Shown: in pieces, positions 18,911 through 56,244 of the stretch | How positions within the stretch are numbered: position 1 is the stretch's first letter | Layout: every line of letters begins with the position of its first letter | From: Mustelus asterias | Taxonomy: Eukaryota | Direction of reading: 5' to 3' | Assembly (NCBI RefSeq): GCF_964213995.1 | Contig: NW_027590144.1 | Coordinates: 1,178,001 to 1,242,000 of the forward strand | DNA length: 64,000 nucleotides | Translations under genes and position numbers: made by a program | The notes under the pieces: generated by a model | Seen by the model: the letters and a program-made list of their open reading frames with translations, nothing else | Database searches by the model: none | What the model was told of the DNA's origin: nothing

Positions 18911-19329
18911 ACCATTCCACAAGGGATGTATGAGTCAAATTCATCACAACTTTTGCAAAGTAAGCCAATGGAAGAGACTGCTCCAGCTACAGACATATCT
19001 CAGTCATAGCATCACGGGAACGATCTTTGCTGGGGTCACACTTGAAATACATCATCTGCTTGCAGACCAGGTATATCACAAAGAACAAAGAACAGTACAG
19101 CACATGAACAGGCCCTTCTGCCCACCAAGTCTGTTCCAACACACATGATTGAATGTTCTCTACTTGCCTAACTTGTGCCACTCAAAAAGTTCAATGCCAT
19201 TCTGGAAAAAGTATCTGTCTCGATGAACACCCCACCCACCAGATTCCCAAAGCTTGCCACCACATTCTCAAAGGAAATTATGGTTTGGCAACAAAAGTTG
19301 ATTGATCAGTGACGTCAAAATCCCATGAA

Positions 19330-21330
19330 GTAATGTTAAACATATCATATCTCTGTTTATATTCAACTCGCCTCTGACTCTGTGTTGCACTCGGCTCTGC
19401 CCGGATCACATTCCAGGAGGTCCTATCTAAGTTTTTTTCTTGCACTCGGCTCAATATCAGCCCTTCATGTTCGAGGCACAGACCCTGTTAAAATTATAAT
19501 TTCTAAGTTATGGCTGGACTTAGCCATGTCTCTGCTAATCTGAAAAGAGGTCGTGTCTTAATTCTTACTGCCTCAGAACATTTACCACTGTATACTAAAC
19601 TGGAAATAATGTCTTCATGCATTACACATGGTTCTGTCACCGTTATTTTGCTAATAGTTCATTAGATTTTAATGATCTAGGTCCTTTTTAAGTTAATTTT
19701 GCACCAGTCCATGTATTTGATTATTTAAGACTATGTCATGTCTCAGTTGTATTGTACTTTGCAATAACTCCAAATTGCTGCATTATCCGAATCTCAATGT
19801 GTATCAGTCGAGGTCCTGTATCAACAATTACTACGAATAAAGTGGGCTCTGTCTCAGCTTATAACACAGTAAGAAGTTTAACAACACCAGGTTAAGGTCC
19901 AACAGGTTTATTTGGTAGCAAAAGCCACACAAGCTTTCGGAGCTCCAAGCCCCTTCTTCAGGTGAGTGGGAATTCTGGCTCCTATATCTAAGCTCCTATA
20001 TCTAAATAAACCTGTTGGACTTTAACCTGGTGTTGTTAAACTTCTTGCTGTGTTTACCCTACTCCAACGCCGGCATCTCCACATCAGTTTATATCAGTCA
20101 AGGTACTGTATCAGTAATTATCACTAACACAATGGACTCTGTCTCAGTTTAAACCTGTCTCAATCCTGTATCAGTAATTATTACTAATGCACTTGGCTCC
20201 ATTTCAGTTCATATAAATCTCGGTCCAGTATCATTAATTACTCGGCGCTGTCTCTGTTCATGTCGCACAAGCTCCTATGTCAGTAAAACTGCGCGAGACA
20301 CTGTCTCAGTTTTCCTTTCCTTGACAATGTCATTTTTAAAAATGTTTCTTTCATGGGATGTGGGTGTCATTGGAATTTGGCATTTGACTACCCCCACATG
20401 GCACCAGGCACTAACTCATTTCTATTTTGTTGAATGAGGCCCCGGTATATATTAAAATACAGTCTGGCTCTGTTAATACTGTGCTTGATCAGAACTCAGT
20501 TTATATTGCACTAGACATTCTCACTGGACAGGTAATATTTGACACTGACCCTGTATATATTTCACTAGACTGTATCAGTGTTACTCCTGTACTTAACTAC
20601 ACCTCTGTTTGAATTATGACTGTATTACTGCACGGTTCTGCGAGAAGAAGAGATAATATGTTGGGATAAAAACATTGCTATCAGGCAGGATCGAGAAACG
20701 GGCAGTATTGGATCGACAGTATTTGGTTGGTGCAGTCTTGGAGGGCCGAAGGGCCTTTTCCTGTGCTGTAATTGTCTTTGTTTTTTGTTCATTGTTGACA
20801 GTGCATGCTACACAGGGCTTGGTATCCATTTTCAATACAGTCAGCAGAAGTAGATTTCAGATATCGCTTCTTCTTTTCCAGTGCCCAAAACCTCATAGAG
20901 TTTTCACTTTCAGAAGGATGCAGAGAATTGTGTTCTCCCAACCACTTTCGTCATTACTGGCATTGACCAGTGCAGTAAAAACTGAGACCATGTCCAGTGC
21001 AATATAAACGTGGACACGGTCAATTGCCTAAATAAGAGTGCATCCAGTTTGATACAAACAGAGACAGATCTAAATTAATATAAACAGAGACAACCTCTAG
21101 CTGAATATAAACAGAAACATGGTGACGTATCATATAAACAGAGACAGCATCAAATTTAGCATAAACAGATAAAACATCTAGTTTAATATGAGTAGAGACA
21201 GGCAATATAAAATTCTACGTGCAATATAAAAAGAGTTAGGGTCCAGTGAAAAATAAACAAAGGCATGGCCTCATAATATAAGCTGACACAGGTTAAATCT
21301 ACTGTAATATAGAGACAGATTCAATCCCCA
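19330..21330. repeat. Degenerate ~30-bp satellite arrays in inverted arrangement around a unique core (~20620-20965)
   Basis: tctgtctcagtt(t)atat.. units on the left, reverse-complement atataaacagagacag.. units on the right; same layout at 37440-39940. Confidence 0.65.
19866..20052. mobile_element. Penelope-like inverted terminal remnant with hammerhead motif (19928-19964, minus)
   Basis: ~45-bp inverted repeat aagaagtttaacaacaccaggttaa(g/a)gtccaacaggtttattt; minus strand CAC CTGAAGA aGGGGC ttgga GCTCC GAAA gcTT GTG. Confidence 0.75.
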
Positions 21331-22301: not shown

Positions 22302-25115
22302 CTACACTATTCCAATATCATCCATATGTTTATCCAATAACCACTTGAACGCTCTCAACGTTGACGAGTCCACCACTGCTGCAGGCAGGGCATTCCACAC
22401 CCTTACTACTCTCTGAGTAAAGAACCTACCTCTAACATCTGTCCTATACATCTCACCCCTCAATTTAAAGCTATGTCCCCTCGTGCTAGCCAACACCATC
22501 CGAGGAAAAAGGCTCTCACTATCCACCCTATCTAATCCTCTGATCATCTTGTATGCCTCTATTAAGTCCCCTCTTAACCTTCTTCTCTCTAACGAAAACA
22601 ACCTCAAGCCCCTCAGCCTTTCCTCATACGATTTTCCCACCATACCAGGCAACATCCTTGTAAATCTCATCTGCACCCTTTCTATCACTTCCATATCTTT
22701 CCTATAATACGGCGACCAGAACTGTACACAATACTCCAAATGCGGCCGCACCAGAGTTTTGTACAGTTGCAGCATGACCTCCTGGCTCCGAAACTCAATC
22801 CCTCTACCAATAAAAGCTAACACACCGTATGCCTTTTTAACAACCCTATCAACCTGGCTGCCAACTTTCAGGGATCTATGCACATGGACACCCAGATTCC
22901 TCTGTTCATCCTCACTACCAAGTATCTTACCATTAGCCAAGTACTCTGTATTCCTGTTACTCCTTCCAAAGTGAATCGCCTCACACTTTTCCTCATTGAA
23001 CTCCATTTGCCACCTCTCAGCCCAGCTCTGCAGCTTATCTATGTCCCTCTGTAACCTGCCACTTCCCTCCACACTGTCTACAACTCCACCGACTTTAGTG
23101 TCATCCGCAAATTTACTAATCCATCCTTCCACGCCCTCATCCAAGTCATTGATAAAAATGACAAACAGCAGTGGCCCCAAAACAGATCCTTGCGGTACAC
23201 CACTAGTAACTGAACTCCAGAATGAATATTTCCCATCAACCACCACCCTTTGTTTTCTTACAGCGAGCCAATTCCTGATCCAAACTGCTAAATGACCCTC
23301 AATCCCATGTGTCCGTATTTTCTGCAAAAGCTTACCATGGGGAACCTTATCAAACGCTTTGCTGAAATCCATATACACCACATCAACTGCTTTACCCTCA
23401 TCCACCTTTTTGGTCACCTTCTCAAAGAACTCAATAAGGTTTGTGAGGCACGACCTACCCTTCACAAAAGCGTGCTGACTATCCCTAATCAAATTATTCC
23501 TTTCTAGGTGATTATAAATCCTATCTCTTATAATCCTTTCCAATACTTTGCCCACAACAGAAGTAAGGCTCAACGGTCTATAATTACCAGGGTTGTCCCT
23601 CCTCCCCTTCTTGAACAAGGGGACAACATTTGCTGTCCTCCAGTCTTCTGGCACTCTTCCTGTCGACAATGACGACACAAAGATCAAAGCCAAAGGCGCT
23701 GCAATCTCCTCCTCCCAGAGAATCCTAGGATAAATCCCATCCGGCCCAGGGAACTTATCTATTTTTACCCTTTCCAGAATTGCTAACACCTCCTCCTTAG
23801 GAACATCAATCCCATCCAGTCCAACAGCCTGCATCTCAGTACTCCCCTCGACAACACTGTCCCTCTCCAGTGTGAATACCGACGAAAAATATTCATTTTG
23901 TGCCTCTCCTATCTCTTCAGACTCCATGCACAACTTCCCACTCCTGTCCTTGACTGGCCCTAATCTTACCCTCGTCATTCTTTTACTCCTGACATACCTA
24001 TAGAAAGCTTTAGGGTTTTCCTTGATCCTACCCGCCAAAGAGTTCTCATGTCCCCTCCTGGCTCTTCTTAACTCTTTCTTTAGGCCCTTCCTGGCTAACT
24101 TGAAACTCTCAAGCGCCCTAACTGAGCCTTCACGTCTCATCTTAACATAAGTCTCCTTCTTCCTCTTCACAAGAGATTCAACCTCCTGAGTAAACCACGG
24201 TTCCCTCACACGTCTGCTTCCTCCCTGCCAGACAGGTACATATTTATCAAGGACGTGTAGTAGCTGTTCCTTGAACAAGTTCCACATTACAATTGTGCCC
24301 ATCCCCTGCAGTTTCCTTTCCCAACCTATGCCAGCTAAATCTCGCCTAATCGCATCATAATTTCCTTTCCCCCAGCTATAACTCTTGCCCTTTGTTATAT
24401 ATCTATCCTTTTCTATTACTAAAGTAAACGTAATCGAATTGTGGTCACTGTCACCAAAGTGCTCACCTACCTCCAAATCTAACACCTGGCCTGGTTCATT
24501 ACCCAGTACCAAATCCAATGTGGCCTCGCCTCTTGTTGGTCTATCTACATACTGCGTCAGGAAGCCTTCCTGCACACACTGGACAAAAACCGATCCCTCT
24601 AAAGTACTCGAACTATAGCTTTTCCAGTCAATATTTGTAAAGTTAAAGTCCCCCAGTACAACTACCCTGTTACTTTCGCTCCTATCCAGAATCATCTTTG
24701 CAATCTTTTCTTCTACATCTCTGGAACTTTTCGGAGGTCTATAAAAAACTCCCAACAGGGTGACCTCTCGTTTCCTGTTTCTAACCTCAGCCCAAACTAC
24801 CTCAGTAGACGAGTCCTCATCAAATGTCCTTTCTGCCACCGTAATACTGTCCTTAACTAACAATGCCACACCTCCCCCTCTTTTACCACCTTCCCTGCAC
24901 TTACTGAAACATCTAAACCCCGGAACCTGCAACAACCATTGCTGTCCCTGCTCTATACATGTCTCCGAGATGGCCACAACATCGAAATCCCAGGTACCAA
25001 CCCATGCTGCAAGCTCACCCACCTTATTCCGGATGCTCCTGGCGTTGAAGTATACACACTTCAAACCGCCTTCCTGCCTCCCAGTACACTCCTGCGACTC
25101 TGAAACCTCATCCAT
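22302..25115 (-). CDS. LINE ORF2: apurinic-type endonuclease + reverse transcriptase, 937 aa
   Basis: APE motifs YFNARS, ISET, GDFN, LDLVL, SDHN; RT motifs YRPLSL, DFSKAFDKV, GVPQGSVLGP, KFADD; no stops. Confidence 0.95.
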   Translation of the reverse strand: MDEVSESQECTGRQEGGLKCVYFNARSIRNKVGELAAWVGTWDFDVVAISETCIEQGQQWLLQVPGFRCFSKCREGGKRGGGVALLVKDSITVAERTFDEDSSTEVVWAEVRNRKREVTLLGVFYRPPKSSRDVEEKIAKMILDRSESNRVVVLGDFNFTNIDWKSYSSSTLEGSVFVQCVQEGFLTQYVDRPTRGEATLDLVLGNEPGQVLDLEVGEHFGDSDHNSITFTLVIEKDRYITKGKSYSWGKGNYDAIRRDLAGIGWERKLQGMGTIVMWNLFKEQLLHVLDKYVPVWQGGSRRVREPWFTQEVESLVKRKKETYVKMRREGSVRALESFKLARKGLKKELRRARRGHENSLAGRIKENPKAFYRYVRSKRMTRVRLGPVKDRSGKLCMESEEIGEAQNEYFSSVFTLERDSVVEGSTEMQAVGLDGIDVPKEEVLAILERVKIDKFPGPDGIYPRILWEEEIAAPLALIFVSSLSTGRVPEDWRTANVVPLFKKGRRDNPGNYRPLSLTSVVGKVLERIIRDRIYNHLERNNLIRDSQHAFVKGRSCLTNLIEFFEKVTKKVDEGKAVDVVYMDFSKAFDKVPHGKLLQKIRTHGIEGHLAVWIRNWLAVRKQRVVVDGKYSFWSSVTSGVPQGSVLGPLLFVIFINDLDEGVEGWISKFADDTKVGGVVDSVEGSGRLQRDIDKLQSWAERWQMEFNEEKCEAIHFGRSNRNTEYLANGKILGSEDEQRNLGVHVHRSLKVGSQVDRVVKKAYGVLAFIGRGIEFRSQEVMLQLYKTLVRPHLEYCVQFWSPYYRKDMEVIERVQMRFTRMLPGMVGKSYEERLRGLRLFSLERRRLRGDLIEAYKMIRGLDRVDSESLFPRMVLASTRGHSFKLRGEMYRTDVRGRFFTQRVVRVWNALPAAVVDSSTLRAFKWLLDKHMDDIGIV

Positions 25116-25150
25116 GACCTCACTACCCTCAACCCCCTGTTCACCGGAGC

Positions 25151-25210
25151 TGCAATTCAGCTCAATTCAGCTCAATTCAGCTCAGTTCAGCTCAATTCAG
25201 CTCAATTCAA
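25151..25210. repeat. Six tandem 10-bp units (ctcaattcag) at the 5' junction of the nested LINE
   Basis: Directly visible. Confidence 0.95.
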
Positions 25211-37045: not shown

Positions 37046-37058
37046 TTAGTGGCAACAA

Positions 37059-37384
37059 TGTTTTTTTGTATTTTTCCAATTCAATCAAATCAAGTCCAAT
37101 TCAGAGTCTCAACAAGTTGAGACATTTCCGATCCAGGCTGGCAAGACAGGGCAAGCGACCAAATTACCCTGCCCTGGGCCTGATCTACATGAGCCAAGCT
37201 GATTGGAGGAGGGGGAGGTTTCCTCCTCCAAGGCTTGATCTCATTTGCATCTTAGCCAAAAGGCCGAGATGCCGCTTTTAAAAATTGCTTCATATGAAAC
37301 ATATGAAGCCTAAATGTGACCCAATGACCTCAACCAAGCGCAGCATTCTCTTCATACTACACTTGATCTTAGCCAAAAGGCCGA
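37059..37384 (-). mobile_element. U2 snRNA-headed short retroposon with A-rich tail and 11-bp TSD
   Basis: Minus strand starts TCGGCCTTTTGGCTAAGATCAAGTGTAGTAT (U2 5' region), has a second TCTCGGCCTTTTGGCTAAGAT internally and ends ggaaaaatacaaaaaaaca. TSD agtggcaacaa at 37048-37058 and 37385-37395; empty site in copy A at ~19286. Confidence 0.85.
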
Positions 37385-37644
37385 AGTGGCAACAAATGCT
37401 ACTTTACCAGCGATACCAAAATCTCATAAAATAACTTCGAACATGTCATATCTCTGCTTATATTCAACTAGCCCCCATATCTGTTTGTATTGCAATCGGC
37501 CATGTCTCGATCACATTACAACATGTCCTATCTCCGTTATTTCTCTACTCGGATCATTATCAGTTGTTCCTACATGAGGCCAAGACGCTAGTTCGACGAT
37601 ACTTTCTGAGTTATAACTGTGCTGAACTATGTTTCAGTTAATAT

Positions 37645-39082: not shown

Positions 39083-39733
39083 AGTAAGAAGTCTCACAAC
39101 ACCAGGTTAAAGTCCAACAGGTTTATTTGGTAGCAAATACCATAAGCTTTCGGAGCACAGCTCCTTCGTCAGATGGATTGGATATCTGTTCTCAAACAGT
39201 GCAAACAGACACAGAAATCAAATTACAGAATACTGATTAGAATGCAAATCTCTACAGCCAGCCAGGTATTAAATGTACAGACAATGTGGGTGGAGGGAGC
39301 ATTCAACACAGGTTAAAGAGATGTGTATTGTCTCCAGACAGAACAGCTAGTGAAATTCTGCAAGTCCAGGAGGCAAGCTGTGGGGGTAAGTGATAATGTG
39401 ACATAAATCCAACATCCCGGTTTAGGCCGTCCTCATGTGTGTGGAACTTGGCTATCAGTTTCTGCTCAGCGACTCTGAGCTGTCGTGTGTCGTGAAGGCC
39501 GCCTTGGAGAACGCTTACCTGAAGATCCAAGGCTGAATGCCCGTGACTGCTGAAGTGTTCCCCAACAGGAAGAGAACAGTCTTGCCTGGTGATTGTCGAG
39601 CGGTGTTCATTCATCCGTTGTCGTAGCGTCTGCATGGTTTCCCCAATGTACCATGCTTCAGGACATCCTTTCTTGCAGCGTATCAGGTAGACAACGTTAG
39701 CCGAGTTGCAAGAGTAGGTACTGTGTACCTGGT
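39083..39733 (-). mobile_element. Penelope-like element 3' part: GIY-YIG endonuclease plus terminal hammerhead (39140-39176)
   Basis: Minus frame YSCNSANVVYLIRCKKGCPEAWYIGETMQTLRQRMNEH...VGEHF...EQKLI...GLN; CCAT CTGACGA aGGAGC tgt GCTCC GAAA gcTT ATGG. Confidence 0.9.
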
Positions 39734-40647
39734 CGATATATAGAGCTTAATGTAAACAGAGGTATGGTGATGTGTAATATAAAGAGAGACAGCATCTAGT
39801 TTAGTAGAATCAGAGAGCACATCTAGTGTAATATGAACAGAGACAGAACGTTCTTTAATACAAACTGACAGCGATTAGTTAATTTAACATCAGCAGAGTA
39901 GGGTCACAGACGAGTGCAATATAGAGACAGGGCCTAGTGTCCCATCAAACATTCCAAGGACAGGTGCAGCATGTGTTTAGGTACCGAATGTTAAGTTCCC
40001 TCCACATTGCAACATTAAACATTCCCAAGGCAGTTGTAGCACGGGATAGATACGAAGTGAATCTCCATCTCCACTGTCCCAATCAAACATTCCCAGAAAA
40101 TGTAGGTTGTTTAGAAACAGTAAAACTCTCTCCACACTGTCCATTCAAACAATTGGGTGGCTGGGACAGGGCGAGTTAGATCCAGGGAATGACCATTATA
40201 CATTTTGGAGAAAAGCTCTCTCGATATATTGCAATTAATTGAATTAGATCCATTTAGTTAGAAGCCTATTAATATGACTGAGAGAATATATTAGCTGGAG
40301 TTTGACTTGATGTTGTTGACAATGACCTATCGTGGAGAGACAAGACAAGACACCGAATCAGGAGAAAAACACAGAGAGATAAAGCACAGGAAATCTATAC
40401 AAATATATTTGCCGCGGCCCTTTATTTCGAGATTAGAGGGAATCTTTCCTACTTTTGAACACAGAGATGATCATAGCCTTTTTTGCGCATATAACAGATG
40501 AAGAAAAATTTCCAAAAAACAATCACGACTGGAATCCGTTGATTTATATGCATGTTTGTCTATTTCTGTGCTATGTTGATAGGGAAATTTTTGTTGTGTT
40601 TTTCGCAATTTATTCTGGGATTGCAATTTCTCTGTTTATTTACACAA

Positions 40648-53914: not shown

Positions 53915-55757
53915 CATAAGACCATAAGACATAGGAGCGGAAGTAAGGCCATTCGGCCCATCGAGTCCACTCCACCATTCAATCATGGTTGATTTCAACT
54001 CCATTTACCCGCTCTCTCCCCATAGCCCTTAATTCCTCGAGAAATCAAGAATTTATCAATTTCTGTCTTGAAGACGCTCAACGTCTCGGCCTCCACAGCC
54101 CTCTGTGGCAATGAATTCCACAGACCCACCACTCTCTGGCTGAAGAAATTTCTCCTCATCTCTGTTCTAAAGTGACTCCCTTTTATTCTAAGGCTGTGCC
54201 CCCGCGTCCTAGTCTCCCCTGTTAATGGAAACAACTTCCCTACGTCCATCCTATCTAAGCCGTTCATTATCTTGTAAGTTTCTATCAGATCTCCCCTCAA
54301 CCTCCTAAACTCCAATGAATATAATCCCACGATCCTCAGACGTTCATCGTATGTCAGGCCTACCATTCCTGGGATCATCCGTGTGAATCTCCGCTGGACC
54401 CGCTCCAGTGCCAGTATGTCCTTCCTGAGGTGTGGGGCCCAAAATTGCTCACAGTACTCCAAATGGGGCCTAACCAGTGCTTTATAAAGCCTCAGAAGTA
54501 CATCCCTGCTTTTGTATTCCAAGCCTCTTGAGATAAATGACAACATTACATTTGCTTTCTTAATTACGGACTCAACCTGCAAGTTTACCTTTAGAGAATC
54601 CTGGACTAGGACTCCCAAGTCCCTTTGCACTTTAGCATTATGAATTTTGTCACCGTTTAGAAAATAGTCCATGCCTCTATTCTTTTTTCCAAAGTGTACA
54701 ACCTCGCACTTGCCCACGTTGAATTTCATCAGCCACTTCTTGGACCACTCTCCTAAACTGTCTAAATCTTTCTGCAGCCTCCCCACCTCCTCAATACTAC
54801 CTGCCCCTCCACCTATCTTTGTATCATCGGCAAACTTGGCCAGAATGCTCCCAGTCCCGTCATCTAGATCGTTAATATATAAAGAGAACAGCTGTGGCCC
54901 CAACACTGAACCCTGCGGGACACCACTTGTCACCGGTTGCCATTCTGAGAAAGAACCTTTTATCCCAACTCTCTGCCTTCTGTCTGACAGCCAATCGTCA
55001 ATCCATGTTAGTACCTTGCCTCGAATACCATGGGCCCTTATTTTACTCAGCAGTCTCCCGTGAGGCACCTTGTCAAAGGCCTTTTGGAAGTCAAGATAGA
55101 TAACATCCATTGGCTCTCCTTGGTCTAACCTATTTGTTATCTCTTCAAAGAACTCTAACAGGTTTGTCAGGCACGACCTCCCCTTACTAAATCCATGCTG
55201 ACTTGTCTTAATCCGACCCTGCACTTCCAAGAATTTAGAAATCTCATCCTTAACGATGGATTCTAGAATTTTGCCAACAACTGAGGTTAGGCTAATTGGC
55301 CTATAATTTTCCATCTTTTGTCTTGTTCCCTTCTTGAACAGTGGGGTTACAACAGCGATTTTCCAATCCTCTGGGACTTTCCCTGACTCCAGTGACTTTT
55401 GAAAGATCATAACTAACGCCTCCACTATTTCTTCAGCTATCTCCTTTAGAACTCTAGGATGTAGCCCATCTGGGCCCGGAGATTTATCAATTTTCAGACC
55501 TTTTAGTTTCTCTAGCACTTTCTCCTTTGTGATGGCAACCATATTCAACTCTGCCCCCTGACTTTCCTGAATTGTTGGGATATTACTCATGTCTTCTACT
55601 GTGAAGACTGACGCAAAGTACTTATTAAGTTCCTCAGCTATTTCCTTGTCTCCCATCACTAGATTACCAGCGTCATTTTGGAGCGGCCCAATGTCTACTT
55701 TTGCCTCCCGTTTGTTTTTAATGTATTTAAAGAAACTTTTACTATCATTCCTAATGA
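53915..55757 (-). mobile_element. Young 5'-truncated CR1-type LINE with open 554-aa RT ORF (53995-55659)
   Basis: NYRPISLTS, DFQKAFDKV, GVPQGSVLGP, KFADD; (gtcttatg) tail; possible gtctcc TSD near 53910 and 55760. Confidence 0.93.
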
Positions 55758-56244
55758 CAGTCTCCTTATCTTAAGAAATATGTAAATGCATTCGGAAAAA
55801 TTCAGAGGAGTTTTACTAAACTATTGCCAGCTATGAGCCGGTTATCTTATGAGGAAAGAATGGTACCGTCAGGTTTGTACCCACGGGAGTTTAGAAGAGT
55901 AAGAGGCAAATTGACTGCAACCTTCCAAACCCTAAGGGGTGCGAACAGTGTGGATGTTGAGCAGATGTTTCCTCTTGTCCATTGTTGTAGCTGTACTGGA
56001 TGTGTCTCTGGGTGCAGATACCTCGGGTCATGGTTCTGCGTCTGTTTGCAATGCTGTACTGTCCACGGGAGGGCGCTCTCTGATCACTTAACGAAAATCA
56101 TGGCCTCCATTTGCAGAAAGTGACTATTTGCCGATACGAAAATGGGCGGAGAAAATAAATCCCATCCAATCACATTGCACTTTCCCGGTTCTTTTGATTC
56201 AACCTTTAACTTCAATACATTTATTTAACACCAATGTCCTCATT

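Follow-up and report, generated by a model that had tools for sequence, protein, structure and literature searches.

Short retroposons headed by small nuclear RNA (snRNA) sequence are known from crocodilians, in which the families SINEU-1/-2/-3 were described together with the LINE Tx1-Mar (Kojima 2015, PMC4494074); two further papers, in the portions available, either speak of SINEU in crocodilians alone or name no other host (PMC4758252, PMC5381603). How such SINEs are transcribed is treated as an open question in the accessible text of the original description, given that the promoter of an snRNA gene is located upstream and is not carried along when the transcript is retrotransposed, and for the sources of SINEU-2 transcription from flanking promoters or by read-through was proposed (PMC4494074). 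According to the available sections of PMC4640811, the 3' flank of the LINE Utopia starts at U2 nt 39, a position identical for Keno, and reptile Utopia carries a 20-bp target duplication.

Here, we describe a SINEU-like non-coding retroposon with a head of U2 nt 1-38/39 from the shark Mustelus asterias. Its U2-resident copies probably use the promoter of the host U2 gene, and a Tx1/Keno-type LINE is the likely agent that copies its RNA into DNA. The tested features of the SINEU class are present, namely the U2 head, a short, non-coding, poly(A)-tailed unit with target site duplications (TSDs), a propagating family and a target preference in common with a Tx1-type LINE. Judged by the available text of PMC4494074, the likeness extends to a length below 500 bp, internal oligo-T runs, copies in tandem on either side of a TSD, snRNA pieces added at the 5' end and partner Tx1 LINEs that are also U1/U2-headed and share the targets. 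By contrast, SINEU is described there as crocodilian only and as preferring Mariner-N4_AMi, whereas the only specific target seen here is U2, and that text, as far as available, mentions no copy behind a U2 promoter and no fold-back arm. The shark family lies outside the named SINEU-1/-2/-3, from which it is set apart by host and target description rather than by body sequence, and through it the SINEU design is found in cartilaginous fish as well as in crocodilians, likely by independent origin. A literature search by title and abstract, with Repbase Reports and most subscription journals outside its coverage, found no shark U2-headed SINE.

A U2-headed insertion in the window

The window, that is, the whole stretch of 64,000 nt that was analysed, carries a 326-nt insert on the minus strand (37384-37059), flanked by identical 11-mers (37385-37395 and 37048-37058). 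Its first 31 nt equal nt 9-39 of a U2 gene of the same genome, with microhomology at the 5' junction, and a stretch near 19286 represents the empty site: once the element and a single TSD copy are taken out, the flanks line up with that stretch with no gap where the insertion lies (identity in 153 of 213 columns). The features are as follows:

37385-37395, minus strand: TSD, upstream 11-bp copy, the last 2 nt of which also match U2 nt 7-8 (repeat search)
37354-37384, minus strand: U2 snRNA head, U2 nt 9-39, 5'-truncated by 8 nt, containing stem-loop I and the branch-site-binding sequence (match to U2)
37318-37346, minus strand: fold-back arm with a predicted 25-bp pairing to the U2 head (15+5+5, G-U rich, sense strand only; folding, several shared variants preserving pairs)
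37287-37309, minus strand: perfect 10-bp hairpin (inverted repeat)
37247-37272, minus strand: internal U2 stem-loop I copy with an extended closing stem (repeat and inverted repeat)
37188-37243, minus strand: long hairpin with a perfect 10-bp inner stem at 37203-37231 (inverted repeat and folding)
37131-37184, minus strand: long predicted hairpin with a compensatory A-U/G-C pair close to the loop, 31 versus 28 of 88 copies (folding and copy alignment)
37106-37123, minus strand: last hairpin, 8-bp inverted repeat (inverted repeat)
37059-37077, minus strand: A-rich 3' tail (sequence)
37048-37058, minus strand: TSD, downstream copy (repeat search)
19252-19457, minus strand: paralogous stretch without the insertion, the empty site near 19286 (alignment)

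The first-pass annotation, made from the sequence alone, had reported a 326-bp insert headed by about 31 nt of U2, with an 11-bp TSD, an A-rich tail, a second stem-loop-I-like block, three perfect hairpins and an empty paralogous site at about 19286; all of this was recovered in our analysis, positions included. The internal stem-loop I copy is identical to the head over 19 nt (37249-37267), and the three hairpins show 10/10, 10/10 and 8/8 complementary positions with loops of 3, 9 and 2 nt. The two largest predicted helices, which involve the fold-back arm at 37318-37346 and the stem at about 37131-37184, were absent from that annotation. The motif AGATCAAG, which follows the internal U2 block, is predicted to pair within the next hairpin; its A is present in just 41 of the 88 full-length copies.

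The element has no stop-free frame of 120 amino acids. Over its length, Rfam yielded only U2 matches, below the cut-off (29.9 versus 46 bits), with no match to the ribozyme families in Rfam, and the tRNA search found none. With no tRNA, U2 alone in Rfam and internal T4/T5 runs, a classical Pol III SINE was rejected.

Family size and dispersal

Searches of the same genome with exact patterns retrieved 4,769 copies of the 3' 27-mer and 1,240 of the 24-mer spanning the U2/body junction, both counts being lower bounds, compared to zero for reversed-pattern controls. A DNA search listed 2,345 candidates, and the 40 that were scored are 94-100% identical. Full-length copies run from U2 nt 1, exit U2 at nt 38/39 and measure about 330 nt, including a body of ~285 nt; the insert in the window is a dispersed, slightly 5'-truncated copy of this multicopy family. 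The SINE family suggested in the first-pass annotation is borne out by copies numbering in the thousands, in which the U2/body junction is fixed and the TSDs differ, and the same counts dispose of the single-copy status that had been considered there.

At least 109 distinct copies reaching the 3' end were extracted, 99 of which were not selected for a U2 flank. An exact TSD of 6-21 nt was detected in 43 of these 99 by a strict script, which also missed the TSD of the window copy, and 32 of the 99 adjoin another copy or a LINE tail. When 24 copies were selected by the 3' motif alone, the start fell within U2 nt 1-15 in 16 cases and inside the body in seven, the remaining copy starting at nt 29. 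Overall, 5' ends cluster at U2 nt 1-5. The 88 near-full-length copies are 85-99% identical to the majority sequence (median, 95%), with many subfamilies among the copies. In some copies (L015, L159 and L192), extra U2 pieces have been added 5' of the element. Head-to-tail runs of two to three copies, belonging to different subfamilies and with the same TSD between them, were observed at L002, L004, L028 and other loci.

Fifteen public runs from eight organisms and eight studies, one of which may be the source of the assembly, contain at least 35% of the sampled words of the element (shares under 0.35 were not used), so the family probably occurs in more than one species. Among the 24 runs listed, no RNA run containing the element appears, which is neutral as to expression. 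No match was obtained when metagenomes were scanned with a 22-mer from the body.

The probable partner LINE

The genome also contains a U2-headed LINE of 5.65 kb. Its ORF1 combines RNA-binding domains of ZCCHC3-like type with a zinc knuckle; its ORF2, which is split in the copies listed, encodes an APE endonuclease, a reverse transcriptase (RT) and a zf-RVT domain. The nearest named relatives are shark and ray proteins (73-81%), and one match, at 44%, is named 'transposon TX1 uncharacterized 149 kDa protein'; the comparison set was devoid of named Keno sequences, and the label 'Keno-type' rests on target and domains. The 3' junction of this LINE at U2 nt 39 and its combination of APE endonuclease and RT are those of Keno and Utopia, and the copy at C24 is flanked by a 20-bp duplication of U2 nt 39-58, the length given for reptile Utopia in the available part of PMC4640811. 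The window element differs from Keno and Utopia in being non-coding and only 326 nt long, and both the element and its LINE reside mostly outside U2 genes. There are 44 full-length LINE 5' ends, and all 18 examined are U2-headed, starting at U2 nt 1-12 and extending to about nt 35.

The 282 exact LINE tails are mostly dispersed. Among the first 30, none is next to U2 nt 39 (one flagged match is an antisense short copy), and five directly abut the short element, for which the chance expectation is about 0.001 per tail. Eleven of the 30 have TSDs of 6-18 nt, a range overlapping that of the short element (6-21 nt), and A occupies position -1 in 10 of these 11. The sites of the short element likewise have A at -1 in 24 of 27 cases and T at 0 in 19 of 27, the T excess being partly an artefact of assigning A's to the tail. 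Dispersed targets do not resemble U2 more than controls do (mean of 3.07 versus 2.99 matches; 829 of 2,000 controls as high), and a general U2 likeness was rejected, with only A|T in common with U2 on average. Individually, U2-like sites do occur: the site of the window copy matches at 8 of 12 positions and those of insertions into an antisense fold-back arm (L021, L108) at 7 of 12. Short copies and LINEs inserted in the antisense of the fold-back arm of another copy, which mimics the U2 target site, were seen at L020, L021, L108, L176 and L203.

The body of the short element could not be traced to the LINE. In local alignments, its similarity to the LINE 5' and 3' untranslated regions (UTRs) did not exceed that of 100 shuffles, only the U2 head being common to both together with a loosely A/T-rich end, and neither did its similarity to U2 nt 39-191 exceed shuffles. 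A relation via a gappy antisense alignment to the whole LINE was dismissed (score of 48 versus a maximum of 46 in 15 shuffles). Accordingly, the comparison of the body with Keno 3' UTRs proposed in the first-pass annotation, when made with the Keno-type LINE of this genome, gave no similarity above shuffles; by contrast, its proposal of a U2-promoter origin and a Keno link is supported, as far as sequence goes, by copies of the element and of a Tx1/Keno-type LINE at U2 nt 38/39 behind U2 upstream DNA. As a non-autonomous rider on a site-specific LINE, the element recalls the R2 SIDEs (PMC3414825 and PMC3774820, available text). However, SIDEs are described there as internal LINE deletions with an HDV-like ribozyme in Pol I genes, whereas the present body shows no relation to the UTRs of the LINE, no ribozyme family was matched, the host gene is transcribed by Pol II and most copies are off-target; a SIDE, in the sense of an internally deleted LINE, was rejected on the basis of the UTR comparison.

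A U2-headed, internally deleted relative of the LINE is found at L221:1683-2863 (C24:41.74 Mb), just before an intact U2 gene. It consists of a piece of the 5' UTR joined to the 3' ~1 kb, 80-88% identical, and possibly represents another non-autonomous family. Matches of 86% to the 3' 29 nt of the element near the C21 cluster were attributed to a GATTG-type simple repeat and not to a LINE; these arrays (L074:200-1580 and L076:6200-8400) resemble the 3' 29 nt, and the tract preceding the tail may be microsatellite-derived.

Copies inside U2 genes

The U2 genes of this genome form an array of 1.83-kb units on C24. A second U2 class on C21 (28.05-28.07 Mb; L074-L076, L219 and L220) is divergent, intact-looking (170-175 bits) and arranged in ~450-bp tandem units whose upstream DNA is different; both the LINE and the short element have entered units of this class, orphans of which are present on C1, C8 and C14.

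Five copies of the short element, distributed over the two U2 gene classes, stand at U2 nt 38/39 with the complete U2 upstream region in front of them, at the following approximate loci:

C24:43060550
C21:28064530
C1:80334615
C8:80287728
C14:62230144

At C24:43060550 (L161/L073:5551), all 400 upstream bases compared are identical to those of the adjacent intact U2 gene. In this unit, U2 nt 1-39 lead into a variant body with an A tail; next come a 5'-truncated LINE and then a second short copy, and the remaining U2 closes the unit. The C21 copy (L158) shares 256 of 259 upstream bases, followed by head, body, A tail and U2 nt 39-191, and a full-length LINE occupies the adjoining unit in the same layout. 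In L154, L155 and L157, about 235-245 nt of U2 upstream DNA are preserved at 92-97%. Exact patterns combining U2 upstream DNA, head and body were found at 7 + 1 places, five of them with the full upstream region. Shorter traces are carried by L156 (32 nt), by L159 and L160, which are one duplicated dispersed locus with an 18-bp TSD (13 nt), and by the dispersed LINE L199 (92 nt). U2-gene-resident copies therefore served as templates at least sometimes. From the traces of 13-92 nt it follows that some templates started upstream of U2 +1, a pattern compatible with read-through in a tandem array no less than with initiation at +1.

Residence in U2 is rare: element-type tails followed by exact U2 nt 39-52 number only 9, about 0.2% of copies. 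Junctions of poly(A) with U2 nt 39 were found 29 times, and of the 20 fetched, 13 have a LINE-type tail, six that of the short element and one neither clearly. Compared with six U2-resident copies, the window copy reaches only 89-93% identity, whereas certain dispersed copies reach 97-99% with residents that belong to other subfamilies. The junction subfamily of the window copy, defined by a widened pattern with 71 exact matches (a stricter first pattern gave 2), has none of its 71 places in either U2 cluster, and U2 upstream DNA was detected in none of 30 fetched members and U2 downstream sequence in none of the 23 with a parsed 3' end. From these matches, it appears that the source of this subfamily is lost, unassembled or outside U2 genes.

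At C24:44.81-44.94 Mb (L071, L072), an 8.03-kb tandem unit combines an intact U2 gene with a full-length Keno-type LINE, with 15 poly(A)-U2 junctions. The LINE of this unit, which has the 20-bp U2 duplication and a split ORF2 in both copies read, probably spread by array amplification.

Predicted structure and its conservation

The sense strand of the window element folds at -136.8 kcal/mol (z = -8.6), a value equalled by 0 of 100 shuffles, compared to z = -4.7 for the antisense strand, and the difference is largely due to the 25-bp, G-U-rich helix formed by the U2 head with the next arm of the body. The U2 head includes the sequence with which U2 binds the branch site, and the fold-back hairpin of the sense strand is predicted to cover it. 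Folding of a LINE copy predicted a different complementary arm over its own U2 head. Taken together, the models suggest that SINE and LINE have independently solved the problem of how a parasitic RNA can bear the working end of U2.

Across the 88 copies, paired columns vary less than unpaired ones (4.6% versus 7.3%), and one pair alternates between A-U and G-C (31 versus 28 copies). The hairpin covariation that the first-pass annotation had put forward for testing received a mixed answer. In the planned test on all substitutions, pair-keeping changes accounted for 22 of 38 shared and 67 of 159 private ones, which is not significant (p = 0.10); considering transitions alone, a test picked afterwards, 21 of 24 shared versus 45 of 70 private changes keep pairs (p = 0.039), these statistics being computed on related and hence non-independent copies. 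The evidence for selection on structure is borderline and suggestive only. The paired positions of the internal stem-loop I copy lack any variant common to at least 5 of the 88 copies. The block is deleted in one U2-resident copy (L073:5551), which slightly weakens the earlier idea that the internal U2 copy is a recognition element for the LINE protein.

Proposed mechanism and alternatives

In the mechanism that we propose, Pol II starting at U2 +1 would produce an RNA composed of U2 nt 1-38, body and A tail, the first arm of the body would fold back on the head and hide the branch-site-binding sequence (the LINE 5' end having its own, different predicted arm), and the LINE ORF2 protein would prime reverse transcription at the A tail. 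Targets would mostly be loosely chosen A|T sites with 6-21-bp duplications, yielding promoter-less dead ends such as the window copy, and only rarely U2 nt 39. At a U2 gene, by analogy with R2, the copied head may anneal to the 5' part of the gene, giving a seamless junction and a new source gene. R2 is, in the accessible parts of PMC3774820 and PMC3414825, likewise a promoter-less element co-transcribed with its target gene, here the 28S rDNA, and 28S sequence kept at the 5' end of the R2 RNA was proposed to account for its uniform 5' junctions. We consider mobilization by the Keno-type ORF2 very likely. Transcription from the U2 promoter, a claim based on identity to the DNA upstream of intact U2 genes, is also likely, although held with somewhat less assurance; the 5' ends of dispersed copies lie at U2 nt 1 or shortly behind it, with no common DNA further upstream, as expected if Pol II starts at U2 +1.

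The strongest competitor, which we regard as unlikely, keeps a true family mobilized by the Keno-type LINE but has its sources transcribed from flanking promoters or by read-through, the U2-resident copies being by-products of the target preference of the enzyme. The window subfamily, with no U2-resident source, fits this scenario, as do the templates that include U2 upstream DNA and the copies abutting another copy or a LINE tail (32 of 99), which could be read through from their neighbours. However, 30 dispersed copies have no upstream sequence in common save neighbouring tails, the 5' ends pile up at U2 nt 1-5, as expected of a fixed start at U2 +1, and the head stops exactly at the insertion base. 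Alternatively, transcription may be driven by the U2 promoter, with most dispersed copies made by another L1/Tx1-type LINE and the Keno-type protein accounting only for the rare U2 insertions. The lack of a clear 3' tail in common, the dispersed targets that are not U2-like and the excess of short copies (at least 4,769) over exact LINE tails (282) speak in its favour; yet the Keno-type LINE is itself mostly dispersed, with 0 of its first 30 tails followed by U2 nt 39, agrees with the short element in TSD range and in the A at -1, and lies adjacent to it in tandem. We hold a different enzyme to be improbable.

Still less credible is an internal promoter, whether of Pol III A/B-like boxes or an snRNA-type enhancer, from which dispersed copies would spread as an ordinary SINE. 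Such a promoter could draw on an octamer, ATGCAAAT, found exactly in 78 of the 88 full-length copies, and on the existence of many subfamilies, but the T4, T5 and T4 runs at positions 15, 109 and 132 would stop Pol III, no tRNA is present and U2 is the sole Rfam match over the element, the exact octamer was not found upstream of the U2 genes of this genome, and the available text of PMC4494074 reports no internal snRNA promoter. Finally, the extra 5' U2 pieces of L015, L159 and L192 imply that template jumps to U2 occur, as would be needed for independent chimeras generated by a LINE RT switching to U2 snRNA, akin to U6-L1 chimeras, or for a one-off event. Barring a long LINE that ends in this body, this origin is refuted by the fixed junction, identical in 1,240 copies, and it sits poorly with a body arm complementary to the head, with the 17 of 24 tail-selected copies that reach the head (7 being truncated inside the body) and with a body that does not match the U2-targeting LINE; we deem it scarcely conceivable.

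Building on transcription from the U2 promoter and mobilization by the Keno-type LINE, we tentatively picture the element as a source-sink RNA parasite of the U2 locus. Only copies re-entering U2 at nt 38/39 might then be alive, with the promoter captured and the head regenerated, and the SINE and the Keno LINE may have separately evolved antisense arms that lock the branch-site-binding sequence, so that the chimeric RNA is no broken U2. If true, this would answer how snRNA-headed SINEs are transcribed. The loci named above place the element at U2 +1 behind unaltered U2 upstream DNA, with the likely LINE adjacent in the same position, and make the transcription question raised in the available text of PMC4494074 testable.

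Additional features of the window

The octamer ATGCAAAT occupies element positions 143-150 (about 37243-37250 in the window). Octamers act in snRNA enhancers, which lie at about -220; in head-to-tail pairs of the element, the octamer would be placed ~200 bp upstream of the next head, which may be due to chance. By eye, another copy (L106) seems to interrupt a similar flanking repeat at the corresponding base (window 37385-37400), a possible secondary hotspot. The minus strand of the window also contains LINE remnants, namely, a 954-aa endonuclease and RT frame (22302-25166), a 591-aa RT frame (53995-55770) and a GIY-YIG fragment (39303-39746).
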